Assembly (NCBI GenBank): GCA_964387865.1
Contig: CAYLXC010000001.1
Span: 50,597-114,596, forward strand
Origin: an uncultured Gammaproteobacteria bacterium
GTDB taxonomy: Bacteria > Patescibacteriota > Microgenomatia > Daviesbacterales > UBA10151
Direction: 5' to 3'
Length of the DNA: 64,000 nucleotides
A program made the position numbers and the translations under genes. Positions 6,317 to 63,002 of this stretch are shown piece by piece (within the stretch, counting starts at the first letter, position 1; the number at the start of each line of letters is the position of its first letter). The notes beneath the pieces are model-generated. The model worked only from the letters and a program-made list of their open reading frames with translations. It ran no database searches and was not told where the DNA came from.

Positions 6317-7652
6317 GAAATTTATGTGCTTCCTTAATCCTTTTTATACTTTCCTCCTCGCCTAAAATTTTCATGCATTCAAAAAGCGGTGGGGTTACAA
6401 TCTGGCCTGAGATTGCAACCCTAATTAGTTGAAACATATCAGATGCTGACAAACCTTCTTGACTAGCCAATTCCCTGAAAGTTTTTTCAAACACCTCTGC
6501 TTTCCATGGTTTTTCCATTCTTTCCAGCTCTTCCGCAACTCTTCCAATCTTTAATCTTAAATCTTTAATCCCTGCCTTGCCGGCAGGCAGGTTTAATCTA
6601 TTAAATACCTCTATTTCATATTCCGGCTTTTCCCATAAAAAATCTGTTAATGGCACAAAATCTGATAATTTCTTTATCCTCTCCTTTATTAAAGGTATAA
6701 CTTTTCCAATCTCTTCCTCTGTTGGATGATCCAAGGCTCCCCCTGAAATATTTTTTAAATATTCTAAAATTTGAGATTTAAGATTTGAGTTTTGAGATTT
6801 CCTTATGTATTCCCCATTTAACCACTCAAGTTTTGTTACATCAAAATACGCTGATGAAGCATTCACGTCTTTAAAATCAAAAAGTTTTATCATCTCCTCT
6901 ATTTCAAAAATTTCTTTCCCTTCAGGATGAGTCCAGCCTAAAAGTGCCAAAAAATTAAGTACAGCCTCTTTTAAATACCCATCATCCCTAAACTCTAGTG
7001 TGGATTTTGCCCCATGTCTTTTGGATAACTTAGCTCTGTCAGATCCAACCAAAACAGGCATATGGGCAAATTGCGGATGAATCCACTCAAAAGTATCATA
7101 AATCATCAAATGTTTCGGGGTTGAAGAAATAAACTCATTACCCCGGATTACATGAGTAATTTCCATTAAATGATCATCCACTACATTCGCAAAATTGTAA
7201 GTCGGATACCCGTCTGATTTTAGAATCACAAAATCTTCTTGGGTATTATTAGGAAAACTAATTTTTTTATCTCCTACCAAATCTTGCCAAACAGTTTCCC
7301 CTTCCTTCTTAACCTTAAACCTTATTGCTTTTCCGTCTTTATAAGCAAACCCTTTTTCTAAAAGCTCAAAAGCATATTTTTTATAAATATCCAGTCTTTC
7401 GGATTGAATATAGGGTGCATATGGACCACCGATATCAGGCCCTTCATCATACTCTAAACCTAACCATTTTAAAGTTTGATAAATTTGCTCAACACTTTCC
7501 GCAACAAATCTTTCCCTATCCGTATCCTCAAGCCTTAATATGAATTTCCCTCCCATTTTTTTTGCAAACACAAAATCAAATAGCGCTTGCCAGGCTGTTC
7601 CAATATGTGGTGCGCCTGTTGGGGATGGCGCAAGTCTAACCCTAACTTCCAT
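6300..7652 (-). CDS. gltX: glutamate--tRNA ligase
   Basis: Class I aaRS signatures: PSPTGAPHIG (HIGH) and KLSKR (KMSKS). Typical GluRS N-terminal catalytic-domain organisation. 450 aa. The 3' end overlaps the convergent dockerin gene by 17 nt. Confidence 0.9.
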   Translation of the reverse strand: MEVRVRLAPSPTGAPHIGTAWQALFDFVFAKKMGGKFILRLEDTDRERFVAESVEQIYQTLKWLGLEYDEGPDIGGPYAPYIQSERLDIYKKYAFELLEKGFAYKDGKAIRFKVKKEGETVWQDLVGDKKISFPNNTQEDFVILKSDGYPTYNFANVVDDHLMEITHVIRGNEFISSTPKHLMIYDTFEWIHPQFAHMPVLVGSDRAKLSKRHGAKSTLEFRDDGYLKEAVLNFLALLGWTHPEGKEIFEIEEMIKLFDFKDVNASSAYFDVTKLEWLNGEYIRKSQNSNLKSQILEYLKNISGGALDHPTEEEIGKVIPLIKERIKKLSDFVPLTDFLWEKPEYEIEVFNRLNLPAGKAGIKDLRLKIGRVAEELERMEKPWKAEVFEKTFRELASQEGLSASDMFQLIRVAISGQIVTPPLFECMKILGEEESIKRIKEAHKFLTSPS

Positions 7653-7681: not shown

Positions 7682-8725
7682 ATGACCTTGACCCAAACTG
7701 CCGTTCTTACCAAACAATCCATAAAACTTACAATTATCGCCTTAATTGTAATTATATTAAGTTTTATTGGCTACAAAATCTGGTATGCATATTATCTTTC
7801 AACCCTTCCTCCTGTTGAAGAAAAGCCAGACACAAAATTTGGTAAATTACCGCCTCCTAATTTTCCAAAAATTGATGTTTCATCTTCAAACTTCTCATAT
7901 AATCTGGACACAACAACAGGCTCTTTACCAAAATTAGGAGATGAAGGTTTTGAAAAAATTATCAAAGTTTACTTTGTAATAAAACCTTTAGCAAGTTTAC
8001 TTTCTTCTGAAAGAAGCCAAACCCTTGCTCAAAAGTTTGGCATTTCTACCCCTCCACAAATTATATCTGAAACAAACTATGCTTTTAGAGAAGCAGGGAA
8101 AAATCTTAATGTGGACTTGGATAGCGGAAATTTTACTTATATAAATCTAATTAGCTCACCTCCTAATGAGCAGTTGGATGATGATAATAAACTTGTAAAA
8201 GACTTTGAAAATATTTTGGCAAACTTGGGAGTTTTGAAAAACGAGCTTAGAGAAGGACGAAGTAAAGTAACACTTTTAAAAAAAGAGGGGGCAAACTATA
8301 TTCCTACTACGCTAAGAACTGAAGCTACATCAGCCCAAATATCCCTTTGGCCTAAAGATTTGGATAAAAGATCAATTTTTACTTCGGATTTCAATAAATC
8401 TTTAGTTAATGCCCAAATTTTTGACTCTTCATCTAATTTGGATAATTATTTATCAATAAACTTTACTAATTGGCCAATTGAGAAAGAAGTTTTTGCAACT
8501 TACCCTACCAAAAGCCCGGAGGATGCTTTTAATGACTTAAAAGGAGGAAAAGGAGCAATTATTTTAAAACCTGCAAAAGGAGAGGTTTCCGTCACATCCA
8601 TCTATTTAGGATATTATCTTTCAGATACTTATACTCCCTACTTACACCCCATATATATTTTCGAAGGTCCCCAATTTGTAGCATATGTTTCAGCAGTAGA
8701 TTCTAATTTTGTTGAGGCCAAATAA
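7682..8725 (+). CDS. hypothetical membrane-anchored protein (347 aa)
   Basis: N-terminal TM helix (LTIIALIVIILSFIGYKIWYAYY) followed by a soluble domain. No recognised motif. Confidence 0.5.
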   Translation: MTLTQTAVLTKQSIKLTIIALIVIILSFIGYKIWYAYYLSTLPPVEEKPDTKFGKLPPPNFPKIDVSSSNFSYNLDTTTGSLPKLGDEGFEKIIKVYFVIKPLASLLSSERSQTLAQKFGISTPPQIISETNYAFREAGKNLNVDLDSGNFTYINLISSPPNEQLDDDNKLVKDFENILANLGVLKNELREGRSKVTLLKKEGANYIPTTLRTEATSAQISLWPKDLDKRSIFTSDFNKSLVNAQIFDSSSNLDNYLSINFTNWPIEKEVFATYPTKSPEDAFNDLKGGKGAIILKPAKGEVSVTSIYLGYYLSDTYTPYLHPIYIFEGPQFVAYVSAVDSNFVEAK

Positions 8726-8726
8726 A

Positions 8727-8798
8727 GTTGACGATTTGTGTAAAATTCCCAAAACACAAATTGTCATCCTGATCCGGCGAAGCCGGAGAAGGATCTAT
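8727..8798 (+). repeat. copy of compound stem-loop repeat family A (hairpin 'atttgtg...cacaaat' + 'ttgtcatcctga' + 'tccggcgaagccgga' + 'gaaggatct')
   Basis: Shares the 'caaattgtcatcctgatccggcgaagccggagaaggatct' core with the copies at 27846-27933, 59502-59590, 60962-61036 and 62524-62632. Lies between convergent genes. Confidence 0.7.
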
Positions 8799-9726: not shown

Positions 9727-11079
9727 TTACTTTTTACTTAATCTAACATCCACTCTTTCCATATCCCTTGGAAATAGAGAAGCTTCCCTTATATTGGCAA
9801 GATTAAGAATATGCATAGTTATTCTCTCAAGTCCAAATGAAAAACCACCTTCAGAGGGCATGCCAAATTTAAAAGCCATCAAATACATCTCAAAATTTTT
9901 TGGATCCATGCCATGAGATTTAATTGACTCAACTAGCTGGTCATAGTTATTTATTCTCTGGCTACCACTCATTATCTCCACTCCTCTGAAAAGAAGGTCA
10001 TAGCTTAAAGAATAATTAGGATCTTTTGGATCTGGCATAGTATAAAAAGGTTTTGCAGCAATTGGAAAATGAGTCACTGTGACAAAATCGCTCCTATGTT
10101 TTTCTTTTGCCCAATTACATAAATCAATCTCATCTTGTGGAGTTAAATCTTTTTCATTGCGATTATCTCTCCCGAATTCTTTGAAGATTAATTCCTGCGC
10201 TTCCCTCAGTGTAAGCCTTGGGATCTTACCGTAGGCAACGGCATCCACACCAAACTCATCCAGTATATCTTTACATTTTTCTTCTGCATGTTTAATAGTT
10301 TCAATAGCAACTTTTTCCAAAAGGTCCAAAAGGTCTTCAAATTCAACAAATCCAATCTCACAATCCATTTGGGTGATTTCTGCCAAATGTCTGGTTGTAA
10401 CTGAAGGTTCTGCTCTGTAAGCCTTAGTCACTGTAAATACACGTTCAAAAACAGGAACTAGCATTTGTTTATAAAGCTGGGGACTTTGAGTAAGAAAAGC
10501 TTTGTGTTCAAAATAATCTATTTTAAAAACTTCTGCTCCTCCTTCTGTTGCAGATGCAGCAATTGTGGGAACAACAATTTCAGTACATCTTAATTCTCTT
10601 GCAGATTTTCTAAAACCATCCAGAATTGCCTCTTGAACCTTAAAAATTGCTTTAACCTTTGGATGCCTTAAAGTTAAAGATCTAAAATCCAAAAGGGTTG
10701 GAAGTTGTAAATCTAAATTCTTTCCTCCCATATCAAACGGTAATTCTGATGCTTTTGATAAAACTTGAATACTTTCTGCAGAAATTTCAATTTCACCGGT
10801 TGGGATTTTTTTGTTTACCATATGTGGAGGCCTTTTATTAACCTTTCCTGTTACGGAAACAACATCTTGGGGATGTAGATCCCTCACCTCGAAGGTGGGC
10901 TTTGACTCCTTCGAGGTGAATGTGGTCTGCTGCGATACTACAACTTGAATTAGTCCACTTCGATCCCCTATATCCAAGAACAAAATTTTCCCATGATCAC
11001 GCCTGGTTTGCACCCAGCCATTAATTTTCACATTTTCACCTATTTTGTTATTACAATCTAATATTAATGTCCTATTCAT
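9727..11079 (-). CDS. aspS: class IIb aminoacyl-tRNA synthetase, aspartate--tRNA ligase (archaeal/short type; AsnRS cannot be excluded)
   Basis: N-terminal OB anticodon-binding fold. Motif 2 FRAE...TRHLAE and motif 3 GGFSFGLERI. 450 aa. Carries a 39-nt palindromic in-frame insert (see the repeat at 10885-10923). Confidence 0.8.
   Translation of the reverse strand: MNRTLILDCNNKIGENVKINGWVQTRRDHGKILFLDIGDRSGLIQVVVSQQTTFTSKESKPTFEVRDLHPQDVVSVTGKVNKRPPHMVNKKIPTGEIEISAESIQVLSKASELPFDMGGKNLDLQLPTLLDFRSLTLRHPKVKAIFKVQEAILDGFRKSARELRCTEIVVPTIAASATEGGAEVFKIDYFEHKAFLTQSPQLYKQMLVPVFERVFTVTKAYRAEPSVTTRHLAEITQMDCEIGFVEFEDLLDLLEKVAIETIKHAEEKCKDILDEFGVDAVAYGKIPRLTLREAQELIFKEFGRDNRNEKDLTPQDEIDLCNWAKEKHRSDFVTVTHFPIAAKPFYTMPDPKDPNYSLSYDLLFRGVEIMSGSQRINNYDQLVESIKSHGMDPKNFEMYLMAFKFGMPSEGGFSFGLERITMHILNLANIREASLFPRDMERVDVRLSKK
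10885..10923. repeat. palindromic element family B ('cacctcgaagg-tgggctttgactc-cttcgaggtg') inserted in-frame in aspS
   Basis: Perfect 11-bp inverted repeat around a 13-nt loop. A near-identical copy lies in cca (15823-15861). It encodes ...TSKESKPTFEVRD... in the aspS frame. Confidence 0.75.
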
Positions 11080-11208: not shown

Positions 11209-11277
11209 ACGGAGGTTGGTTTTTGTGTAAAAAAACCAACATAACTTAACCTCCGTTTATAAGTGGAGGTTTTTTTT
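11207..11277 (+). promoter_or_regulatory. attenuator-like leader unit 1: hairpin A (aaacggaggtt...aacctccgttt) and alternative terminator B (acctcc..ggaggt + T8) whose 3' arm is the SD for the ATG at 11278
   Basis: Direct reading: 'ggaggt' (11211-11216), 'acctcc' (11249-11254), 'ggaggt' (11265-11270), 'tttttttt', then ATG. Confidence 0.5.
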
Positions 11278-11520
11278 ATGGAGAAAAGAAAGGAAGGTGA
11301 AAAAATGGTAGAAAGAATAATTGTAAAACCCGAATATCCCGAACAAAAAGGTATTACTCGGGCTTTAGCTGATCTTGATCGAATTCAAGTAGATATTAGA
11401 GGAAGAATGATTGGTTCAGAGCCAGTCGCACAGACAGGATCATCAAGTTTACAAACTAGAGTAAAAATATCACTAGAATATCCAGATCCTACTGAACGAA
11501 AACCATATTTCGTTCGCTAA
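11278..11520 (+). CDS. hypothetical small protein (80 aa from ATG 11278; table ORF starts at GTG 11263)
   Basis: SD GGAGGT lies 8 nt upstream of ATG 11278. The product has no recognised motif. Confidence 0.45.
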   Translation: MEKRKEGEKMVERIIVKPEYPEQKGITRALADLDRIQVDIRGRMIGSEPVAQTGSSSLQTRVKISLEYPDPTERKPYFVR

Positions 11521-11668: not shown

Positions 11669-11720
11669 AAAATAACCTAAAAAAGAAAGTAATCAGACCT
11701 CCCTAACGGGAGGTTTTTTA
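11650..11720 (+). promoter_or_regulatory. attenuator-like leader unit 2: hairpin A (gggaggtct...agacctccc) and terminator B (cctccc-taac-gggagg + T6) that contains the SD of the next gene
   Basis: Direct reading of the sequence. Terminator B is a 6-bp GC stem with a 4-nt loop and a U6 tract, immediately followed by start codon TTG 11721. Confidence 0.5.
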
Positions 11721-12011
11721 TTGGGAAAAAATATGAGTGAAAGATTTAGACCAGATACAATACATAGAAGGGCCTATAAAATAGCCTCAGAAACCTTTGC
11801 GAATGTCGAAAGTTTAACTGATGAACAAGTAGGAGTAGTAGAAAATGACAGAAGAGGTAGAAGAAGAATGATCCATTCATTACAGCAAAGTCTGAAGGAA
11901 ACTTCAGGAGAAGAACGAAGACGGTTACTTGAGCAGTTACATGATCTGGAATCGCATCAATTCGCATCAAGATATGCAATCGAAAAACGTTCAGGTAAAA
12001 GATTTTTTTAA
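11721..12011 (+). CDS. hypothetical small basic protein (96 aa, Arg-rich)
   Basis: The ORF follows SD GGGAGGT at optimal spacing from start TTG 11721. No recognised domain. Confidence 0.45.
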   Translation: MGKNMSERFRPDTIHRRAYKIASETFANVESLTDEQVGVVENDRRGRRRMIHSLQQSLKETSGEERRRLLEQLHDLESHQFASRYAIEKRSGKRFF

Positions 12012-12378: not shown

Positions 12379-12431
12379 AAAAAGATTCCGCAACAAACCT
12401 CCTGAAAGGGAGGTTTTTTAATGAGAAAAAT
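12348..12431 (+). promoter_or_regulatory. attenuator-like leader unit 3 upstream of the cimA/leuA-family gene: hairpin A (gggaggttgtttggcg...cgcaacaaacctcc), terminator B (acctcc-tgaaag-ggaggt + T6), and an 8-codon uORF (ATG 12421, MRKIWQKL) overlapping the cimA start
   Basis: Direct reading of the sequence. SD GGGAGGT (12408-12414) is optimally spaced for ATG 12421. The cimA ATG at 12432 is in another frame. Confidence 0.5.
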
Positions 12432-15597: not shown

Positions 15598-17034
15598 ATG
15601 CATTATACACTACCTAATGAGGTAAAAAATATTTTAGATAAATTTAGAAAATCCGGATACCAAATTTATATTGTTGGAGGGGCAGTACGTGATCTTTTGA
15701 TGGGAAAAGAGATTAAGGACTGGGATTTTACAACAGATGCTAAACCTGAGGAAATCTTGAAAGTAATCCCGGAAGGTTTTTACGATAATAAATTCGGAAC
15801 AGTAGGAGTACCAACAGAGAACACCTCGAAGGTGGGCTCTGACTCCTTCGAGGTGAATGATGAAATCATGGAGATCACAACAATGAGAAAGGAAGGTAAG
15901 TATACTGATTTTCGCCACCCATCCGAAGTTTCCTGGACCAACAAAATTGAGGAAGATTTGGCAAGAAGGGACTTTACCATAAATGCTATGGCTTTGGGAA
16001 TCCCAAGCAAACACCTCCGAGGTGAAGATAATGGTGTAACACCAAGAGAACACCTCGGAGGTGAAATCCTGGAAACTGTGGATCCCTTCAGCGGCCAAAA
16101 TGATATTAAAAACCACCTCATCAGGGCTGTCGGAGACCCAACCAAACGCTTCCAGGAAGATGCTCTTCGTCTTATCAGAGCAATCAGGATTGCAACTGAA
16201 TTGGAATTTGACATAGATAAGGAAACATTTGAAGCCATCAAAAAAAATGCCAATCTTTTAAAAGAAATTGCCTGGGAAAGGATAAGAGATGAACTATTTA
16301 AACTCCTTGCATCCACGAATCCATACATGGGTACCTTGAAACTTAGGGAAGCGGGGATACTGCAAATGATTCTTCCAGAGCTTGAGCGCTGTTTTGGGAT
16401 AGTTCAGGAAGGTCCAAAACATGACAGAACTTATGACATTGGTGAGCACTCACTACTAACTTTAAAACATACCCCATCTTCCGATGCACTGACTAGATTT
16501 GCTGCACTTCTTCATGACATTGGCAAACCGGATACAGTGGAAAAGGCTCAAGATGGGAATGTCACATTTTATCAACATGATGTAGTTGGTGGAAATTTGG
16601 TTTTAAAAATAGCAAAAAGATTAAATTTATCAAGAAAACAAACAGATAAATTATTTAGATTAGTAAGATTCCATATGTTTACAGTTGCAGAGAATCAGAC
16701 GGATTCAGCAATAAGAAGATTTATTAAAAATGTAGGTCTGGAAAATATTGAAGACATGATGGCCTTAAGAGTTGGCGACAGGTTGGGAGGAGGGACACAA
16801 ACGGAAACCTCTTGGAGAATGGAAAAATTCAAAGAAAGAATTAAAGAAGTATTAAAAAAGCCATTTTCACTTTCAGATTTAAAAGTAAATGGTAATGATG
16901 TAATGGAAATTCTAAAGATTAAACCCGGCCCAAAAGTAGGTGAAATCCTCCAAAAACTCTTTGAAGAAGTCTTAGAAGATGCTTCTAAAAATAACAAAGA
17001 ATATTTATTAAAAAGGCTCCAAGAACTTAAATAA
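15598..17034 (+). CDS. cca: CCA-adding tRNA nucleotidyltransferase with C-terminal HD domain
   Basis: PolyA-pol/CCA head (GGAVRDLLMG...DWDFTT, RRDFTINA) and HD motif LLHDIGK. Contains three palindromic repeat inserts (15823-15861, 16023-16035, 16061-16073). Confidence 0.85.
   Translation: MHYTLPNEVKNILDKFRKSGYQIYIVGGAVRDLLMGKEIKDWDFTTDAKPEEILKVIPEGFYDNKFGTVGVPTENTSKVGSDSFEVNDEIMEITTMRKEGKYTDFRHPSEVSWTNKIEEDLARRDFTINAMALGIPSKHLRGEDNGVTPREHLGGEILETVDPFSGQNDIKNHLIRAVGDPTKRFQEDALRLIRAIRIATELEFDIDKETFEAIKKNANLLKEIAWERIRDELFKLLASTNPYMGTLKLREAGILQMILPELERCFGIVQEGPKHDRTYDIGEHSLLTLKHTPSSDALTRFAALLHDIGKPDTVEKAQDGNVTFYQHDVVGGNLVLKIAKRLNLSRKQTDKLFRLVRFHMFTVAENQTDSAIRRFIKNVGLENIEDMMALRVGDRLGGGTQTETSWRMEKFKERIKEVLKKPFSLSDLKVNGNDVMEILKIKPGPKVGEILQKLFEEVLEDASKNNKEYLLKRLQELK
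15823..15861. repeat. palindromic element family B copy ('cacctcgaagg-tgggctctgactc-cttcgaggtg') inserted in-frame in cca
   Basis: It differs from the aspS copy by one nucleotide in the loop. It encodes ENTSKVGSDSFEVND. Confidence 0.75.
16023..16073. repeat. two short palindromes, 'cacctccgaggtg' and 'cacctcggaggtg', which are reverse complements of each other, in-frame in cca
   Basis: Both are preceded by 'gaacacctc' and related to family B. They encode the cca-specific insertion ...KHLRGEDNGVTPREHLGGE... Confidence 0.6.
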
Positions 17035-26151: not shown

Positions 26152-26192
26152 CAGAAAAGGCAGGAATTTTTGGGGCAGAAATATTTTTTGTG

Positions 26193-26494
26193 CCTAGGAA
26201 GATAGTAAGCCAGATTCTGTTTCAAGATGATAATTTATCTAATGCTCCTGATTTCGAAAATCGAGCGAGCAGCTCTTTCGGTTCTAGGATTGCAGCGGGG
26301 AGGATTGCCCGTTTCACTCCCACACCAGATGGTGCGGGATTCGTCACTGTTGCTCTAACTAGTGATTACTCATGCCGATTTACATCGACCACCCTGCTCT
26401 ACGCTGTCTGGACTTTCCTCCACGTTCATGTAAACTACGTTCGTGTAAACCGAATCGTAGTAAACTGAACGTGGTAATCATCCTTCTTCCTAGG
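26193..26494 (-). ncRNA. rnpB: RNase P RNA (bacterial type, reduced)
   Basis: The minus strand contains the P4 signature GGAGGAAAGTCC...AGGGTGG and the 3' P4 strand ACAGAATCTGGCTTAC. P1 is closed by 'cctaggaaga'/'tcttcctagg'. It lies in a 360-nt gene-free gap. The overlapping plus-strand ORF 26124-26468 is spurious. Confidence 0.75.
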
Positions 26495-26510: not shown

Positions 26511-27497
26511 CTAAACCTTCTTTTCTTCAATTATCTCTGTTGCAATAATTTGTAAAACAACTGCCATAGGCACAGCTAAAAGAGCCCCTCCAAATCCCAA
26601 AAGGCGCGAACCTACTGCAATTGCCAAAATTACAACTAAAGGGTTTAAACCAACAGCCCTTTTCATAACCTGTGGCACAATCAAATGGTTCTCAAGTTGT
26701 TGAATAACAAAATACATTGCTGTAACAGCCAAACTCAAAATTGGGGATATTGTTAATGCTATCAAAATCGAAGGAATTGCTGAAACAATTGGTCCTATTA
26801 CCGGCACTACTTCTAAAACCCCTGCAACAACAGCAAGAGGTAGAGCATATGGAATACCTAAAATAATAAGTCCTATATAAGATAAAAGGCCTATTATTAA
26901 ACTTAAAAAAAGTTGTCCTCTAAGCCATCCTCCCAATTTTTCCTCAATTCTTACTATTATTTTCTTTACCTTATCTTTTCTTCCTATAAAAAGGGATGCA
27001 AATCTCTCTTCCAAATTGTCGCGTTCTAAAAGTAAATAAAATGTCAAAACAAGAAGAAATATGATCATTAAGAAATTATCAAAAATTGATAGTGTAATTG
27101 AGAAAACATTTCCAGGTATACTGCTTAATTGTGATTGTAAAACAGATTTATCTATTGCCGCATTATTTAATAATCTGTCTAGAATTGGTGGAAGTGTTGA
27201 GAATAACTTACGTGTTTCTTCAACAAGCGGAGGTATAATTATAGCAAGTAGACTTGATAAAATCGCTATTATAATAATGTAGGTTATACCAATACCCAAA
27301 GCTTTCGGAAGCTTTAAATTTGTGAAAAATTTAACCATTGGAGATAAAGCAGACATTAAAATTAACGCCACAAATAAAATCAAAAGCAAATCTCTAATTA
27401 AAAATATTAACCAAAGTGATAAGATAAATATGGTAATAAAAATAACTGTTTTATGGGAAATGTCTATTTTTTGTATCATTAATATGGATGATACCAT
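26511..27497 (-). CDS. AI-2E family transporter (PerM/YdiK-like permease)
   Basis: Eight-TM architecture with the AI-2E pattern (N-terminal TM pair, conserved central loop). Confidence 0.75.
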   Translation of the reverse strand: MVSSILMIQKIDISHKTVIFITIFILSLWLIFLIRDLLLILFVALILMSALSPMVKFFTNLKLPKALGIGITYIIIIAILSSLLAIIIPPLVEETRKLFSTLPPILDRLLNNAAIDKSVLQSQLSSIPGNVFSITLSIFDNFLMIIFLLVLTFYLLLERDNLEERFASLFIGRKDKVKKIIVRIEEKLGGWLRGQLFLSLIIGLLSYIGLIILGIPYALPLAVVAGVLEVVPVIGPIVSAIPSILIALTISPILSLAVTAMYFVIQQLENHLIVPQVMKRAVGLNPLVVILAIAVGSRLLGFGGALLAVPMAVVLQIIATEIIEEKKV

Positions 27498-28483
27498 TTA
27501 GCAACTTTATTTTCTACTCTAGTTACAAAATCTTCCTTTGTAATATCAAACCAAACTACATCTTTTTCTTTCTTAAACCAAGCCAATTGTCTTCTAACGT
27601 ATCCATGAATTTTGTGTTGCATTTTTCTAATTAATCCTTTATCCCCCCAAATCTCCCTTATCTCCCCACTCAAATAATCTGCCAAAACTCCATACTCTAA
27701 ACCCAACTGTCTCATTCTTTTTAAGCTCAATCCACCTTTATATAGTTTTTTAGCCTCCTCAATCATCCCGATTCTATCTACCACCCTATCATCCACTCTT
27801 TTATACAAAAGCTGCCGTGGAGCAGTTAAGCCAATCTTCAGCGTATTTGACAAACTGCGTACAATTTTTAAACGCAGTTTGTCATCCTGAGCGAGTCCCG
27901 AGTTTATCGAGGGACGAGTCGAAGGATCTCCTTTATGATTTGATAATGCCAGTTCTATTGCCCTCACTAACCTCCTGGGGTTTTTCCTATCTGAAGAATT
28001 CATCTTTTGCCACTTTCCTAAGGAAAGTTCCCGAAGTTTTCGCTGCAATTTATCTAAAGATAATTTCTCAAGTCTCTTTCTTAATTTTTTATCCACTGGA
28101 ATCACTAAATTTGATAAACCATAAAGGATCGCCTTAAGATATAACCCTGTTCCACCAACAATAATTGGAAGTTTTCCTCTTTTTATAATCTTCTGTATCG
28201 CCCTGCGAGCATCCTTAACATAGTCGGCCACACTATATTGTTTTTTCGGATCAACCAAATCATACATCCAGATTTTTACACCATCGACTACCCAGTATCC
28301 ATTCCCTTTGACATTTCCTCCATGTTTCGAGATTATTCCAGGCAACTTCCCAGTGCCGATATCTAAGCCTTTATATACCTGCCGTGAATCACAAGCTACG
28401 AGCTCACCATCAAATCTTTTGGCCAACTTCAGTGCCAGATCTGTTTTCCCTGTTGCAGTTGGACCTAAAATAACAAGTATCAT
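27479..28483 (-). CDS. miaA: tRNA dimethylallyltransferase
   Basis: P-loop GPTATGKT, DSRQVYKGLDIGTGK. Carries an in-frame copy of repeat family A (27846-27933). Confidence 0.85.
   Translation of the reverse strand: MILVILGPTATGKTDLALKLAKRFDGELVACDSRQVYKGLDIGTGKLPGIISKHGGNVKGNGYWVVDGVKIWMYDLVDPKKQYSVADYVKDARRAIQKIIKRGKLPIIVGGTGLYLKAILYGLSNLVIPVDKKLRKRLEKLSLDKLQRKLRELSLGKWQKMNSSDRKNPRRLVRAIELALSNHKGDPSTRPSINSGLAQDDKLRLKIVRSLSNTLKIGLTAPRQLLYKRVDDRVVDRIGMIEEAKKLYKGGLSLKRMRQLGLEYGVLADYLSGEIREIWGDKGLIRKMQHKIHGYVRRQLAWFKKEKDVVWFDITKEDFVTRVENKVAKWYHPY
27846..27933 (+). repeat. repeat family A copy inserted in-frame inside miaA
   Basis: 'tatttgacaaactgcgtacaatttttaaacgcagtttgtcatcctgagcgag...gacgagtcgaaggatctcc' has the same module order as the ribosomal-operon copies. 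It encodes the miaA-specific segment ...PSINSGLAQDDKLRLKIVRSLSNTLKIGL... Confidence 0.7.
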
Positions 28484-41569: not shown

Positions 41570-41641
41570 TCGGAGATAAGGGAATTGGACCCTTTGCCTC
41601 TCGGACCCCATCCGAGCGTTCTACCGATGAACTAATCTCCG
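41570..41641 (-). tRNA. tRNA-Pro (anticodon GGG)
   Basis: Minus-strand read CGGAGAU-UA-GUUC/AUCGGUA/GAAC-G-CUCGG/AUGGGGU/CCGAG-AGGCA-AAGGG/UCCAAUU/CCCUU-AUCUCCG-A. All four stems pair and the anticodon is GGG. Confidence 0.8.
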
Positions 41642-50297: not shown

Positions 50298-50810
50298 TTA
50301 AGCTTTTTTACTCCTTCCTCGTGATTTAATCTTAGGAGAAATGACTTTGGGCTTTGATGTTTTCACAGACACTCCTCTACTTACATCTTTAGTATTTTTC
50401 TCTTCTTTGCTTAATTCTTTATTCTTAATTCTTAATTCTTTTTCCAAAGGTTTCAGCTCCTCTGCTCCAATTAAGCTCATTTTTACCATCATTGTTTGAT
50501 CTCCAAATCTAGTTCCCAATCTTACCAATGATGTGTACCCGGAATTTCTATTAGCTAATTTTGGCACAATCTCTTTAATTAATCTTTCCCTTAAATTTTT
50601 ATCATTAAGAAAAGTCTGCAACCTAGATTGAGTATTTTTTTCTTTTGCAAGATTTACAACCTTATCAACTAAACCTTTAATTGCTTTTGCCTTAGCTTCC
50701 GAGGTCTGGATAGTTCCGTAAGTAAAAAGGGATTGCACTAAACCCTTAAAAAGAGTGTCTCTTTGATCTTTATTTCTACCAAGGTGTTTACCATAAACTC
50801 TATGCCTCAC
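50298..50810 (-). CDS. rplQ: 50S ribosomal protein L17 (with Lys-rich C-terminal extension)
   Basis: MRHRVYGKHLGRNKDQRDTLFKGL L17 signature. Confidence 0.9.
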   Translation of the reverse strand: MRHRVYGKHLGRNKDQRDTLFKGLVQSLFTYGTIQTSEAKAKAIKGLVDKVVNLAKEKNTQSRLQTFLNDKNLRERLIKEIVPKLANRNSGYTSLVRLGTRFGDQTMMVKMSLIGAEELKPLEKELRIKNKELSKEEKNTKDVSRGVSVKTSKPKVISPKIKSRGRSKKA

Positions 50811-51705
50811 TAAGAGTCAACCCCCTTTCAGAAAGCTTTTCTGAAATTAGACTTAATGATTTGGTACCTAAATTTTTAGCTTTTAAAAGTTGAGGTTTCG
50901 GAATATTTATTAAATCCTCAATTGTATTTATCTCAATTGCCTTCAAAGCATTTGTAATACGTACAGGCAAATCCAATTCTTCTATTGTAAGTTTTAAAGT
51001 TTCCTCAGAAATTTTTGATCCCTCTTCTTTAATCTCCTCTTCCATATCAGGTTCATAAACTTTCTTAAAAGTTTCTGATAAAATTTTTGATGCCTCATTT
51101 AAAGCGTCAAGCGGTGTAACAGCTCCATTAGTTGTAATGTCCAAAGTCAATTTATCAAAATCCGCCTTTCTTCCAACTCTGGTTGGATCAACAGAATAAT
51201 TTACGGCAACAACAGGAGAAAATAGCGAATCAATTGAAATTACTCCTATCTCATTTATTTTCCTCTCATCTGCAACTGAATAACCTTTACCAACTTCTGC
51301 TGTTGCTTCCATATTTAATTTAGATTTGGAATCTGTAAGAGTTGCAATTACTTGATCTCCATTTACTATTTCCCCGTCCCCCTCTATCTCAAAATCCGAA
51401 GCTTTTACAACTTTTTTGCCTGATGCTTTAACAGTCAATTTTATCCCTTTTTCTGAATGAATTTGAAGGCGAACCTTTTTTAAATTTAAAATTATTTCAA
51501 TTACATCTTCCAAGATTCCATCAATTGTTGAAAATTGATGTGAAACTCCATCAATTTTTACAGAAGTTATAGCAGCACCCTTAAGGGATGCGAGCAGTAC
51601 CCTCCTTAGACTGTTTCCCAAAGTATGACCAAAACCCTCCTCTAAAGGTTCAAGTACGATCTTTGCAAAATTATCTTTTTCAACTACTATCTTTACTTTA
51701 AACAT
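50800..51705 (-). CDS. rpoA: DNA-directed RNA polymerase subunit alpha
   Basis: N-terminal domain plus alpha-CTD. The start is reset to the ATG at 51705 (MFKVKIV...); the table extension to 51744 runs through an intergenic hairpin. Confidence 0.85.
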   Translation of the reverse strand: MFKVKIVVEKDNFAKIVLEPLEEGFGHTLGNSLRRVLLASLKGAAITSVKIDGVSHQFSTIDGILEDVIEIILNLKKVRLQIHSEKGIKLTVKASGKKVVKASDFEIEGDGEIVNGDQVIATLTDSKSKLNMEATAEVGKGYSVADERKINEIGVISIDSLFSPVVAVNYSVDPTRVGRKADFDKLTLDITTNGAVTPLDALNEASKILSETFKKVYEPDMEEEIKEEGSKISEETLKLTIEELDLPVRITNALKAIEINTIEDLINIPKPQLLKAKNLGTKSLSLISEKLSERGLTLSEA

Positions 51706-51795
51706 ATCGTTCCTTCTGTCATTCCTGCGAAAGCAGGAATCCATACAAATAATTATTATATGGATCCCGTATCAAGTACGGGATGACGTTTCATG

Positions 51796-52398: not shown

Positions 52399-52524
52399 TT
52401 TTATTTGGACTTTTCTGAATTTCCTTTTTCAATGATTTAGGTTTATCTCACGAAAAGTCCAGTTCTACCTCCTTCTTGTCATTTATTTTTTTAATTCTTT
52501 ATTCATAATTCTTAATTCATAATT

Positions 52525-59493: not shown

Positions 59494-59501
59494 AATTCTT
59501 G

Positions 59502-59590
59502 CCGATTTGACAATTTGAATACAATTTTTAATTCAAATTGTCATCCTGATCCGGCGAAGCCGGAGAAGGATCTCCTTCATGAGTCCTCTC
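59502..59590 (+). repeat. repeat family A copy in the rplE-rplX spacer (13-bp-stem hairpin 'tgacaatttgaat/attcaaattgtca' + 'tcctga' + GC hairpin 'tccggcgaagccgga' + 'gaaggatctccttcatgagtcc')
   Basis: Read directly from the sequence. It fills almost the entire 103-nt spacer. Confidence 0.75.
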
Positions 59591-59596
59591 ACTTCC

Positions 59597-59902
59597 TCAT
59601 TTAAACTCCTTCTTACATTTTTTACATATCCTCATCTTGTCTTTACCAACCACCTTGAACCCCACCCTTGTTACTTTTTTACAATTTGGACAAATCAAGC
59701 CGACATTTGATACATCCAAAGGTTTTGGAATATTAATTATTCCACCTTCAATTTGTCCTTGTTTTTTTACATGTCTCTTATAAATATTTGCACCTTCAAC
59801 AAACACTTTTCCCTCTCCTGCTTTCACATAAGCCACATTTCCTTCTTTTCCCCTATCTTTACCAAGTATTATTTTAACTTTGTCGCCTTTTTTAATCTTC
59901 AT
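59597..59902 (-). CDS. rplX: 50S ribosomal protein L24 (KOW) with C-terminal zinc-ribbon (CPNC...CKKC)
   Basis: MKIKKGDKVKII KOW start. The table ORF begins 6 codons upstream. Confidence 0.85.
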   Translation of the reverse strand: MKIKKGDKVKIILGKDRGKEGNVAYVKAGEGKVFVEGANIYKRHVKKQGQIEGGIINIPKPLDVSNVGLICPNCKKVTRVGFKVVGKDKMRICKKCKKEFK

Positions 59903-59913
59903 CTTTTCTCTCC

Positions 59914-60282
59914 CTACCAAACCTCCTGTGCTAAAGAAACAATCTTGCTAAACCCTGCATCCCTTATTTCCCTTGCAATTGGTCCAAATATCCTTGTTGC
60001 TCTCAAATTTCCCTCATTATCAATAACAACACCTGCATTATCATCAAATTTTACATATGAACCATCCTCACGTCTTATTTCTTTTTTGCATCTGACAATA
60101 ACTATCCTTACAATTTCATGATCTTTAACCTGACCATTAGGGTCTGCCCCTTTCACAACCCCTACAACAAGTTGTCCTAATGTGGCTTTCCTTTTTCCGG
60201 ATCCGCCAAGAGGCTGAATTACCTGCAGCGCTTTTGCTCCGCTATTATCTGCAACTGTTAACATTGTCCTATGTTGTACCAT
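59914..60282 (-). CDS. rplN: 50S ribosomal protein L14
   Basis: [17 protein letters not shown] canonical start. The table ORF (to 60384) is an upstream read-through extension overlapping rpsQ. Confidence 0.85.
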
Positions 60283-60703
60283 GGGCCCCTTTCTTTTTTC
60301 GTGGCTTTTTCTGTTTCTCATCCATTTTTCTCTCTGTCTGAGGACTCGCTTCGCGAAGCGAGCTGGCGACTGACGACTCTTCAATCTTTTCTTCTGGCAT
60401 TACTTGCCTGCCGACAGGCACGGCCTCAGCAATTATTCCTTCTGCTTCTTTTTTCAGTTTTTCCTCAGCAATTTCAGCAAGGTTTCTGCCTAAAACTTTT
60501 GTAATCTTCCAATGTTTATTTTTAGAAATTGGTCGGCATTTAATAATATCTACGATATCCCCTATTTTTACTCCAATTGGGTCATCAACCAAAAATCTTT
60601 TGCTTTGCACATAGGTTTTTTTATACAAAGGATGCATTGCCATTCTCTCCACCAAAACCGTGACTGTATTTTTTAATTTTGTTGACACAACTCTTCCAAT
60701 CAT
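60269..60703 (-). CDS. rpsQ: 30S ribosomal protein S17 (about 60-aa Lys-rich C-terminal extension)
   Basis: [18 protein letters not shown]-fold start. Confidence 0.85.
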
Positions 60704-60948
60704 AACTTTGACTCCTTATGACTTATCTGACTCTTTGACTCTAATTCAGCAAGTAGCTCTTTTTGCCTCATAACTGTCAGCACTTGTGCCAAATCTCTTC
60801 TTTTTTTAGAAATCTTCTTCACATCCTTTAATTTCTTCATATTTTTATCCATTACCAAATTTGCTATTTCATCTTTAATGTTTTTAGCTTTATTTCTTAG
60901 TTCTTTTGGGTCCAAACCCTTTATTTGTGTTAGTTCGTTCTTTTTCAT
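60700..60948 (-). CDS. rpmC: 50S ribosomal protein L29
   Basis: Helical L29 pattern (ELRNK...L). 82 aa. Confidence 0.8.
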   Translation of the reverse strand: MKKNELTQIKGLDPKELRNKAKNIKDEIANLVMDKNMKKLKDVKKISKKRRDLAQVLTVMRQKELLAELESKSQISHKESKL

Positions 60949-60961
60949 AATTTTCTACTTA

Positions 60962-61036
60962 GCCGATTTGACAATTTGAATATAATTTCTGAATTCAAAT
61001 TGTCATCCTGAGCGAGCGTAGCGAGTCGAAGGATCT
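60962..61036 (+). repeat. repeat family A copy in the rpmC-rplP spacer
   Basis: 'ccgatttgacaatttgaatataatttctgaattcaaattgtcatcctgagcgagcgtagcgagtcgaaggatct'. Confidence 0.75.
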
Positions 61037-61039
61037 TCA

Positions 61040-61453
61040 TCATATTTTCCCCACGATCTTTGTATTAAGTGGCAGTTTATGGGAAGCTAACCTTAATGCT
61101 TCATGAGCAACAATTTCTGTAACTGCTCCCATTTCAAAAATTAACTGTCCTCTCTTTACAACAGCTACATACCCCTCTACATCACCTTTTCCAGATCCCA
61201 TCCTTGATTCTGCGGGATGTTTGGTAACAGGTTTATCCGGAAAAATCCTAATCCAAATTCTTCCACCTCTTTGGGTATAATGAGCCATTGCACGCCTTGC
61301 AGATTCAATTTGTCTTGCACTTATCCACCCATTTTCCATAGATTTTAGTCCAAATGCTCCAAAGGCAAGTCTGTTGCCTCTTGTGGCAACACCTCCTCTT
61401 GTCCCCTTAAACATTTTTCGGTATTTAGTTCTTTTCGGTTGTAACAGTGCCAT
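61040..61453 (-). CDS. rplP: 50S ribosomal protein L16
   Basis: [14 protein letters not shown]-terminus. Confidence 0.9.
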
Positions 61454-62094
61454 TAAATCTCAACCTCCCCTTTATTTATCCATACCTTTACACCAACATA
61501 TCCTGATTTTGTTAATGCAGGATAAACCGAAAAATCTATATCTGCTCTTAATGTATGTAAAGGCATTGTTCCTGAGGCTTTCCATTCACGTCTCGCAATT
61601 TCTGCCCCCCCAATCCTTCCTGATATAACAACTCTTACACCTTTTGCCCCGGATCTCATAACCCTATCTATTGCCTGATTCATTACTCTTTGTGCAGGCA
61701 ATCTCTTTGCAAGTTGTTCAGCAACAGATTGTGCAACTAAATAGGCAGAAAGATCAGCAGATTTCAACTCCATAGGCACAATTTCCAAACTATTTTCATC
61801 TTTTAAATTAAGTCCCTTCATCAAAAATTTCTTAATCTCAGTGAGCCCACTACCTCCTCTTCCAATTAAAACTCCCGGGCGGGATACGAAAATTATCACC
61901 TTGAGCTTATTAACTGCCCGTTCAATTTCAACGGATTGAATACTCGCAGGCCTTAATTTTTTCATAAGCAAATCCCTAATCTTTATGTCTTCTAAAACAT
62001 TTTGCTTATACTTTTCACCTTTGGCAAACCATCTTGATTTCCAGGTTGCCGAAGTACCCATTCTGAAACCGACAGGATGTATCTTTTGTCCCAT
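61453..62094 (-). CDS. rpsC: 30S ribosomal protein S3
   Basis: [11 protein letters not shown] and KH domain. Confidence 0.9.
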
Positions 62095-62125
62095 AAGTTA
62101 GGGTTAAGGGTTAAGGGAAAAGTTT

Positions 62126-62515
62126 TTATTCTTTACCCTTTACGCTTTCCGCTTTACCCTTACCTCCTTTCTTACTATCCACTTTTCCCTCATCACTTAA
62201 CACTATCTTTATATGACTCATTCTTCTTTTATACGGCTTAACCCTGCCTCTTGATCCTGCTCTAAAACGGCGCATTTTTGTGCTTTCATTAATTTCAAAT
62301 TTTTTAAATCCTACCTTTTCTACATCCATTCCAGCATGTTTAGCATTTGCCAAAACTGTTTGTATGGCTTTTACCAAATCTCTTCCAGCTACTTTTGGTG
62401 TTACCATTAAAACATCAACTGCCTTTTGAGGCTCCATTCCTCTAACCATATCAGCAACCAACCTCAGCTTCCTGGGGCTAGTATGTATATAGCGTTGTAT
62501 TGTTTGTATTTCCAT
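62126..62515 (-). CDS. rplV: 50S ribosomal protein L22
   Basis: L22 core (ISPRKLRLVADMVRG). Confidence 0.9.
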   Translation of the reverse strand: MEIQTIQRYIHTSPRKLRLVADMVRGMEPQKAVDVLMVTPKVAGRDLVKAIQTVLANAKHAGMDVEKVGFKKFEINESTKMRRFRAGSRGRVKPYKRRMSHIKIVLSDEGKVDSKKGGKGKAESVKGKE

Positions 62516-62523
62516 ATTTGTTA

Positions 62524-62632
62524 TTTGACAATTTGCGTAAAATTACTAAACGCAAATTGTCATCCTGAGCGAGCGAAGTCGAGTCAGACTCGACGGAGCG
62601 AGTCGAAGGATCTCCTTCATGAGTCCGCTCAC
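62524..62632 (+). repeat. repeat family A copy in the rplV-rpsS spacer (longest copy, extra GC hairpin 'gtcgagtcagactcgac')
   Basis: 'tttgacaatttgcgtaaaattactaaacgcaaattgtcatcctgagcgagcgaagtcgagtcagactcgacggagcgagtcgaaggatctccttcatgagtccgctcac'. Confidence 0.75.
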
Positions 62633-62647
62633 TCTTTTTAACCTACT

Positions 62648-62932: not shown

Positions 62933-63002
62933 AATAGTCGTAAACTGTCAGCTCTCAGCTATCAGGCAAGCTGTCTGACGACTGAATACTGATGACTGAT
63001 AG

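Follow-up and report, generated by a model that had tools for sequence, protein, structure and literature searches.

The 64,000-nucleotide stretch analysed here (hereafter the window; positions 50,597 to 114,596 of contig CAYLXC010000001.1, assembly GCA_964387865.1) comes from an uncultured bacterium placed by GTDB among the Patescibacteriota (Daviesbacterales) and carries an S10/spc ribosomal protein operon on its minus strand, as judged from open reading frame (ORF) calls and Pfam. Three spacers of this operon are unusually long and hold a compound palindromic element, of which the window contains five copies in total. We conclude that these elements are probably small non-coding DNA repeats of the repetitive extragenic palindromic (REP) type, of the kind described as CGTC-tagged REPs or Ssn-related motifs (SRMs), and that they are tolerated passengers rather than regulators of the operon. 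The compound, tag-pairing architecture in a genome of the candidate phyla radiation (CPR) is new; the kind of repeat is already known.

The three spacers, named in the direction of transcription, run from L24 (rplX) to L5 (rplE) (59494-59596, 103 nt), from L16 (rplP) to L29 (rpmC) (60949-61039, 91 nt) and from S19 (rpsS) to L22 (rplV) (62516-62647, 132 nt). Gene calls and Pfam bore out these coordinates, which had been given in an initial annotation of the window, and confirmed that the feature described there is real and correctly described. Each spacer is nearly filled by one copy of the compound element on the plus strand, and the two further copies that had been listed, one between convergent genes (8728-8797) and one inside miaA (27845-27941), are also real. 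All five copies share the plus-strand orientation. The hairpin pattern TTGACAATTTG-N-CAAATTGTCA has three matches in the window, against 0.00 expected from the shuffled window. The 16-mer junction CAAATTGTCATCCTGA, searched with up to three mismatches, has six matches against 1.04 expected; four are exact, the miaA copy has two mismatches, and one match, in the RNase P RNA, is spurious. A repeat search of the window found the same families (D2, D3 and D10).

Each copy contains one AT-rich hairpin of 13 bp, TTGACAATTTGnnn...nnnCAAATTGTCA (hairpin 1), whose 3' arm ends in TGTCA, which is at the same time the 5' flank, or tag, of a second, GC-rich hairpin. The layout of the latter is TGTC/ATCCT/GA...GA/AGGAT/CT, obliques marking the borders of its parts; we refer to it as GA-type. 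The initial annotation had counted the GC-rich hairpin as a module of its own. It is present, but it forms one nested hairpin with the flanking tcctga...gaaggatct (TCCTGA...GAAGGATCT): ATCCT and AGGAT pair as the outer stem, G.A/A.G mismatches follow in tandem, and the inner stem varies from copy to copy. Two copies have TCCGGC-GAA-GCCGGA as inner stem, one has GC-GTA-GC together with a second G.A step, and the other two contain extra nested stems. The module order stands as first described; the tail CTCCTTCATGAGTCCnCTCAC, reported for every copy in the form ctccttcatgagtcc(g/t)ctcac, is complete only in the copies beginning at 59504 and 62521, partial in the miaA copy and missing from those at 8728 and 60966. 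This tail looks like a truncated inverted partner of the core.

Across the five copies the tagged hairpin measures 36-57 nt and folds both as RNA and as DNA. TGTCAT and ...AGGAT-C-T are present in five of five, and the TGTC tag of compound copies is predicted to pair with its upstream complement in hairpin 1. Four copies fold far beyond their shuffled versions, with z values from -4.5 to -7.3 as RNA and from -5.6 to -6.8 as DNA. The copy at 60966 is weaker (z about -2 to -3), its core depending on G.A pairs that energy models do not credit. Over 12 compound copies, 96% of hairpin 1 is paired and five of its pairs are changed on both sides; its score was reached by none of 500 shuffles. Hairpin 1 is confined to a few low-GC contigs, accompanying 5 of 89 units at <42% GC and 1 of 547 at >=50% GC.

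The individual copies, all on the plus strand, are arranged as follows. Copy 1 (8728..8797) consists of hairpin 1 (TGACGATTTGTGT...ACACAAATTGTCA) and the tagged GA-type hairpin TGTCATCCTGA-TCCGGCGAAGCCGGA-GAAGGATCTA, without a tail; it begins 3 nt past the stop codon of a plus-strand gene (7682-8725), and its convergent neighbours are a 347-aa ORF without assigned function and a D-Ala-D-Ala carboxypeptidase. Copy 2 (27845..27941) is a full compound element with a partial tail, lying in frame in miaA (ORF 27479-28483, minus strand), where it encodes ...SNHKGDPSTRPSINSGLAQDDKLRLKIVRSLSN...; its hairpin 1 carries the compensatory changes AAACTG/CAGTTT. Copy 3 (59504..59592), in the L24-L5 spacer, comprises hairpin 1 (59507-59543), the tagged hairpin (59539-59574) with the inner stem TCCGGC-GAA-GCCGGA, and the tail (59572-59592). 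Copy 4 (60966..61039), in the L16-L29 spacer, has hairpin 1 at 60968-61005 and the tagged hairpin at 61001-61037, with no tail. Finally, copy 5 (62521..62632), in the S19-L22 spacer, combines hairpin 1 (62525-62562) with the longest tagged hairpin (62558-62614), which contains an additional nested stem TCGAGTC-AGA-CTCGAC, and a tail extending to 62632.

We then compared the operon with that of four relatives whose L16 is 85-89% identical (L240, L241, L242 and L245). Their L24/L5, L16/L29 and S19/L22 junctions consist of overlapping genes or of 0-7 nt. Because these orthologous junctions lack the element, the three operon copies are insertions. Alignment to the relatives places the insertion points at AAATGA/.../ATTATGA-ACAGA for L24/L5, AATATGA/.../AATTATGA-AAAAG for L16/L29 and CTTAA/.../AAAT-ATGG for S19/L22, and in this way shows each of the three to be specific to this lineage and to lie precisely where stop and start codons (ATGA or TAA-ATG) used to overlap. 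Judged from the same alignments, these insertions are recent. The initial annotation had weighed the possibility that copies are limited to the window and that relatives have unrelated sequence in these spacers; the relatives do lack the insertions, and copies occur beyond the window, for example just after L6 in L245, where a compound copy lies in the opposite orientation relative to transcription. The search for target-site duplications, which it had also raised, gave no consistent duplication at the three dated insertions: the flanks there have nothing in common but ATGA or, at one site, 10 nt with an indel, and this shared sequence at the same time re-creates the start codon.

In the closest relative found (contigs L243 and L244), whose L16 is 95% identical, the L16/L29 junction carries the element as well, and core and flanks are the same as in the window. 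What differs is the interior of hairpin 1, which has been swapped, 29 nt in the window (AATTTGAAT...ATTCAAATT) corresponding to 14 nt in the relative (CACGCCAGAGGCGG), with the GAC/GTC pairing kept. Both contigs of this relative end inside the element.

The insertions have consequences for the coding regions on either side. The Shine-Dalgarno sequences of L5, L29 and L22, which are contained in the 3'-terminal parts of the genes upstream, have come to lie 100-130 nt away from the starts, and no new Shine-Dalgarno sequence was found next to these three starts. The mRNA strand of copy 4 contains a 32-codon mini-ORF whose ATG overlaps the L16 stop and whose terminal TGA overlaps the L29 ATG; the 15-nt length difference in hairpin 1 of the 95% relative preserves its frame. 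Copies 3 and 5 encode a shorter ORF, (V)xGLMKEIL...LRMTI, whose stop lies within hairpin 1, 39 or 27 nt ahead of the downstream start and in frame with it. The in-frame copy in miaA adds ~30 residues in a variable surface region. Versions of it, of the form ...NHxGDPS...QDDKLRLxIxRSLSN..., occupy the same site in orthologues P0122, P0123, P0124, P0125 and P0129 (63-70% identity), and since they are recognisable in several orthologues this distant, the miaA insertion is old and is evolving as protein. It was judged by alignment to close orthologues; PDB comparison was uninformative, the region varying in length.

Removed from hairpin 1, the GA-type core proved to be widespread. Its consensus is YGTC/AT-YYY/GA...GA/RRR-AT/C-T. 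The pattern TTGTCATCCTGA-N(8-38)-GAAGGATCT occurs at at least 119 loci in one-genome-per-species contigs, where the estimated chance expectation is ~8, and the matches listed come from Acidobacteriota, Bacteroidota, Bacillota, Proteobacteria, Actinomycetota, Chloroflexota, Omnitrophota, Patescibacteria and others. A 25-base version of the core is found at at least 120 metagenome loci, on contigs of 27-72% GC. The motif is also present in 54 viral contigs, with identical copies within one contig. These matches show that the GA-type core is scattered over many phyla of bacteria as well as over viral contigs.

The outer stem covaries with a matching 3' arm (ATCCT in 375 units, ATTCT in 80, ATCCC in 26, ATTCC in 23 and ATGCT in 17). 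Among 112 units found without using tag or tail, the four bases on the 5' side are T or C (87+10%), G (96%), T (96%) and C (95%); on the 3' side, 96% of the units have C as the first base. Triloops form the largest class of apical loops, with GNA in 65 of 95, whereas of the 78 tetraloops only 7 are GNRA. C-GNA-G triloops and sheared G.A pairs in tandem are characteristic of highly stable mini-hairpins of single-stranded DNA (ssDNA), such as d(GCGAAGC), whereas GNRA and UNCG tetraloops are typical of selected RNA hairpins. By analogy with these structures, the core loops are of the ssDNA type.

The units have a REP-like distribution in genomes: they are mostly intergenic, lying between co-directional genes in 70 cases, convergent genes in 46 and divergent genes in 17. 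Their orientation shows weak biases, both relative to co-directional genes (42:28) and relative to GC skew (71:53). An inverted partner lies within 150 nt, tags pointing outward, for 101 of 294 units. Three contigs (L158 1138-1542, L177 3515-3841 and L198 1297-1989) contain tandem arrays with a 72-nt period, each repeat holding one GA-type unit and a degenerate inverted half; CRISPR-like arrays were considered for them and rejected, the 33-nt 'spacers' being constant, so that they are tandem satellites of the unit. In a Pedobacter sp. contig (L063), two Flavo-1 RNAs (Rfam RF01705; 5168-5259 and 5450-5541) each carry a GA-type unit, GUCACCCUGAGCGGAGUCGAAGGGGA, inserted in the apical loop, and a third GA-type unit lies between the two Flavo-1 matches.

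A screen of the genes neighbouring 101 units found no enriched gene family. This screen left out ORFs overlapping the unit, and for that reason it missed genes for GIY-YIG nucleases. Among the loci fetched by the motif, a single-domain GIY-YIG ORF abuts a unit in four (L027, L028, L130 and L136), and Pfam GIY-YIG was confirmed for the ORFs of L027 and L130; the nearest solved structure is UPF0213 BH0048 (PDB 1zg2). The assignment was made by Pfam GIY-YIG and the PDB 1zg2 match, and these ORFs are putative members of the cd10448 type. Starting from the protein side, four of four homologues chosen for long contigs (L303-L306) are flanked by GA-type units, up to nine of them within 1.7 kb. Taken from both directions, these loci show by gene neighbourhood an association of the GA-type core with Ssn-like GIY-YIG genes in other organisms. 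The viral contigs with the motif yielded only one partial match to an Ssn-like gene.

This association connects the core to a characterized system. The longer Neisseria repeat form, NTS (CGTCATTCCCGCGMAVGCGGGAATCYRG), and the related SRMs flank a small GIY-YIG gene, ssnA (Chenal et al. 2025, PMC11893778). Binding by SsnA requires the hairpin to be ssDNA, and the enzyme's cut falls a few bases 5' of the hairpin; cleavage depends mainly on the three bases that precede the palindrome, binding above all on the C that immediately follows it, and RNA and double-stranded DNA are not substrates (PMC11893778). Since these published critical positions are the conserved ones of the GA-type core, we liken the core to Ssn targets. 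Like the SRMs, which include Neisseria NTS/dRS3, it is an oriented hairpin with a non-palindromic 5' (C/T)GTC tag, a stem starting with AT and a C after the palindrome, it exists in many intergenic copies that often form inverted pairs, and it flanks small single-domain GIY-YIG genes. SRMs are semi-palindromic hairpins of 20-50 nt, a description that we judge to cover the 36-57 nt tagged hairpins of the window. The differences lie in the stem, which is a plain 7-9 bp with a short loop in published SRMs and 5 bp followed by tandem G.A mismatches and a variable, often nested inner stem in the GA-type, and, in the CPR compound form, in the tag and expected cleavage region being base-paired by the extra hairpin. 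CPR bacteria are generally regarded as symbionts. Published SRMs are enriched in symbionts (PMC11893778).

A second description of the same kind of repeat is the CGTC-tagged REP superfamily (Di Nocera et al. 2013, PMC3733652), which comprises families CGTC-1 to CGTC-4 and includes Neisseria dRS3 and Rickettsia RPE-4/RPE-6. According to that study the CGTC tag is often TGTC, the first two stem positions are A-T, a 3-nt tail follows, inverted dimers predominate, and the repeats lie between co-directional or convergent genes, with some in-frame intragenic copies (PMC3733652). The elements studied here share the YGTC tag, the A-T stem start, the 3-nt tail, the inverted dimers, the gene-pair locations, the in-frame copies and the lack of a flanking transposase found. 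Where the published families have a stem of 8-9 bp, a 4-5 nt loop and a CCA tail, the stem of the compound copies is interrupted, their loops are GNA triloops or long nested inserts, and their tail is CTN; the tag is unpaired in CGTC REPs, whereas the TGTC of the compound copies is present but predicted to be paired. Patescibacteria are outside the five phyla listed for CGTC repeats in PMC3733652.

This genome also contains the textbook form. An inverted dimer of canonical tagged REPs (51717..51788, units on both strands) fills the rpsD-rpoA spacer. Its plus unit is TGTC-ATTCCTGC-GAAA-GCAGGAAT-CCA and its minus unit CGTC-ATCCCGTA-CTTGA-TACGGGAT-CCA, that is, 8-bp stems, 4-5 nt loops and CCA tails, and the minus unit (51761-51788) matches the published SRM pattern, with 0.12 matches expected by chance. 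The longest-ORF call for rpoA starts inside this dimer; the true start of the gene is likely an ATG, at position 51705. Just upstream of the window, the rpe/rpiB spacer holds a second dimer of this textbook kind (L309 7394-7475).

Two further systems resemble the elements in their relation to genes. Rickettsia palindromic elements (RPEs) are likewise inserted in frame in protein genes, as are the miaA copy, which has been kept through speciation, and the palindromes in the S17, AspRS-like and CCA-adding-enzyme-like genes of the window; RPEs belong to another sequence family, except for RPE-4/6, which are CGTC repeats, and their host is an obligate intracellular alphaproteobacterium rather than a CPR bacterium. 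Mycobacterial interspersed repetitive units, as Supply et al. reportedly described in 1997, occupy operon spacers and carry a small ORF that overlaps the flanking stop and start codons and keeps translational coupling. The copy 4 mini-ORF overlaps the L16 stop and the L29 start in the same manner. The mycobacterial units are unrelated in sequence and are not tagged hairpins, and copies 3 and 5 differ from them in having only the short ORF that ends inside hairpin 1.

From these comparisons we propose the following scenario. The family may spread or be maintained through ssDNA transactions involving an Ssn-like nuclease. In this Daviesbacteria-like CPR lineage, the core has acquired an additional AT-rich hairpin of 13 bp, with the tag as its 3' arm, and in many cases a short inverted tail as well. 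Insertions in the operon would survive only at stop/start overlaps, persisting there as both genes remain intact and a new start context is supplied; at L16/L29, the stop-free mini-ORF may also preserve translational coupling. Translation of the downstream genes might start on the A/U-rich 3' flank, independently of a Shine-Dalgarno sequence, or be coupled to that of the element ORFs. The miaA copy would persist because one reading frame of the element is open. As passengers, the elements would place strong stem-loops in the polycistronic mRNA. Plus-strand GC skew is negative over the whole window, so that the G-poor strand is the one on which all five compound copies have their tagged sense.

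Several points weigh against this reading. We know of no copying mechanism for the CGTC/SRM repeat families, and to our knowledge nobody has shown Ssn nucleases copying or moving these repeats. No Ssn-like gene is present in the ~76 kb readable of this genome (the window plus L307 and L309, which add 12 kb of flank), so that the partner nuclease is hypothetical for this organism. The published pattern HGTCWYN(0-2)YYVSBRHN(0-5)WNVSBRGN(0-2)RNCYNB matches none of the five compound copies and none of 566 GA-type units; with this pattern failing, the family assignment rests on layout, conserved determinants and gene association. All five copies are on one strand, antisense to every gene whose transcript must contain a copy, which leaves room for a strand-specific effect. 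The old miaA copy fits relics as well as active elements. Neither a consistent target-site duplication nor a presence/absence polymorphism within one population was seen, and any current mobility is thus hypothetical. Finally, the study of Di Nocera et al. did not identify a transposase dedicated to CGTC repeats (PMC3733652).

The alternatives can be weighed on the same material. The copies might be selected RNA structures in the ribosomal protein mRNA, serving as RNase III/E processing sites or as barriers to 3' exonucleases that uncouple the stability of mRNA segments. Such roles have been reported for E. coli REPs, ERIC and Correia elements, and the mRNA strand is predicted to form very stable stem-loops here (-21 to -50 kcal/mol, z down to -5.5). 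The three operon copies share their orientation, and the genes downstream of them have lost their nearby Shine-Dalgarno sequences, so that their expression must depend on the element context. However, relatives with 85-89% L16 identity lack the element at the same junctions, the L245 copy after L6 is opposite to transcription, an identical element lies between convergent genes and inside a coding region, and the orientation of the family relative to co-directional genes is only 42:28. GNA triloops outnumber GNRA tetraloops 65 to 7, no Rfam family matches, and Ssn does not bind RNA (PMC11893778). Together these observations make an RNA role improbable. Rfam at the gathering threshold and a permissive scan returned only chance microRNA and CRISPR direct-repeat matches on hairpin 1, and a literature search with the literal element sequence returned only unrelated primer matches. 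A self-cleaving ribozyme was also considered and rejected: compared by eye with the hammerhead consensus, the CUGA...GAA core reads CUGAGCGA or CUGAUCC instead of CUGANGA and has no helix III partner, and Rfam agrees. A regulatory role, as autoregulatory sites of ribosomal proteins or as internal promoters or terminators of the S10/spc operon, would suit the location in operon spacers, the presence of TTGACA, a TAnAAT-like hexamer in the hairpin 1 loop of 9 of 10 well-aligned compound copies and one sigma-70-like match (10/12) on the mRNA strand of copy 4. Against it, promoter-like sites are not in excess (12, compared with 10.9 +/- 3.4 in shuffles) and are present in a single one of the three operon copies; terminator-like sites do not overlap any element, and the same element occurs outside ribosomal protein genes. 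The autoregulation suggested in the initial annotation has the further difficulty that L240, L241, L242 and L245 do without the sequences altogether, and we attach next to no probability to regulation of this kind.

The remaining alternative is that the copies are classical miniature inverted-repeat transposable elements (MITEs) or REPINs that are mobilized in trans, either by a DDE transposase or by a tyrosine transposase of the RAYT/IS200 type. In its favour, the units start with TG..., the inverted dimers with outward tags resemble REPIN doublets, and identical copies exist within genomes. On the other hand, the tag is YGTC and not GTAG, the unit is itself a hairpin that is not bounded by (long) terminal inverted repeats, and the three dated insertions show no consistent target-site duplication. 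No Y1 (Y1_Tnp) or DDE transposase is among the neighbours of the 101 units in the 25 most frequent of 130 families listed, and none was found in 10 scanned ORFs bracketed by inverted units; the gene that actually flanks units is the GIY-YIG nuclease. We therefore hold transposition of this classical type to be very unlikely. The initial annotation had proposed non-autonomous mobile elements of MITE-like form: mobility of the former kind is supported by the absence from relatives' junctions, the unrelated contexts and the multi-phylum core, and the classical MITE label is not.

Within the reading of the elements as tolerated REP-type passengers, a more far-reaching version can be formulated, which we consider tentative and on balance doubtful. 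The GA-type hairpin (TGTC-ATYYY-GA...GA-RRRAT-C) would be a large, multi-phylum, nuclease-associated class missed by the published SRM definition, and the CPR compound a tag-pairing derivative of it that is bound but uncut and hence safe in essential operons. Hairpin 1 might hide the tag and the 5' cleavage region, so that an Ssn-type nuclease could bind but could not cut. In favour of such cleavage-proofing, the 95% relative swapped the interior of hairpin 1 yet kept both the GAC/GTC tag pairing and the mini-ORF frame, which hints at selection on both pairing and translatability.

The window contains other palindromes and structured features. A different palindrome of 38 nt (CACCTCGAAGGTGGGCTyTGACTCCTTCGAGGTGAATG) occurs at 10885-10922 and 15822-15859 in copies that are 97% identical; it lies in frame in two unrelated genes, for an AspRS-like tRNA synthetase and a CCA-adding-enzyme-like protein, and adds ~12 residues (TSKESKPTFEV / TSKVGSDSFEV). 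S17 (60269-60703, 144 aa) has two GC-rich in-frame palindromes (60341-60378 and 60401-60430) in a C-terminal extension; four relatives lack both (AVPVGRQ as an insert, and a longer tail). Further ribosomal protein spacers are taken up by other hairpin families (52399-52524, 62933-63002 and 62095-62125). There is a GGACTTTTCGTGAG...TTCAGAAAAGTCC hairpin in the S11-S4 spacer, with the same family in the L2-S19 spacer of relative L242, a GCTATCAG...CTGATAGC hairpin in the L2-S19 spacer, and GGGTTAAGGG repeats after L22. Three terminator-like copies of a hairpin plus T-run (11250-11286, 11694-11730 and 12394-12430) stand directly before the starts of consecutive ORFs, two short and one of 523 aa. 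A class A RNase P RNA (26190-26493) and tRNA genes (2281-2351 and 41570-41641) are all on the minus strand. In L241, a Microgenomates Gr01-1014_7-like relative, an extra 214-aa ORF with no Pfam match (6757-7401) lies between S8 and L6.

The repeats appear to break short-read metagenome assemblies, as at the ends of contigs L243 and L244, and they also yield spurious small ORFs. The copy number and host range of the repeat system are probably underestimated, because the common G.A-interrupted form of the motif escapes the published search pattern. For the organism, long spacers in a highly conserved operon of a streamlined CPR genome would be explained as repeat insertions and not as regulation, and the tagged-hairpin/Ssn repeat system would be extended to Patescibacteria. 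The insertions at ATGA overlaps, the mini-ORF bridging L16 and L29 and the in-frame miaA copy found across species provide concrete cases of essential genes tolerating palindromic invaders.

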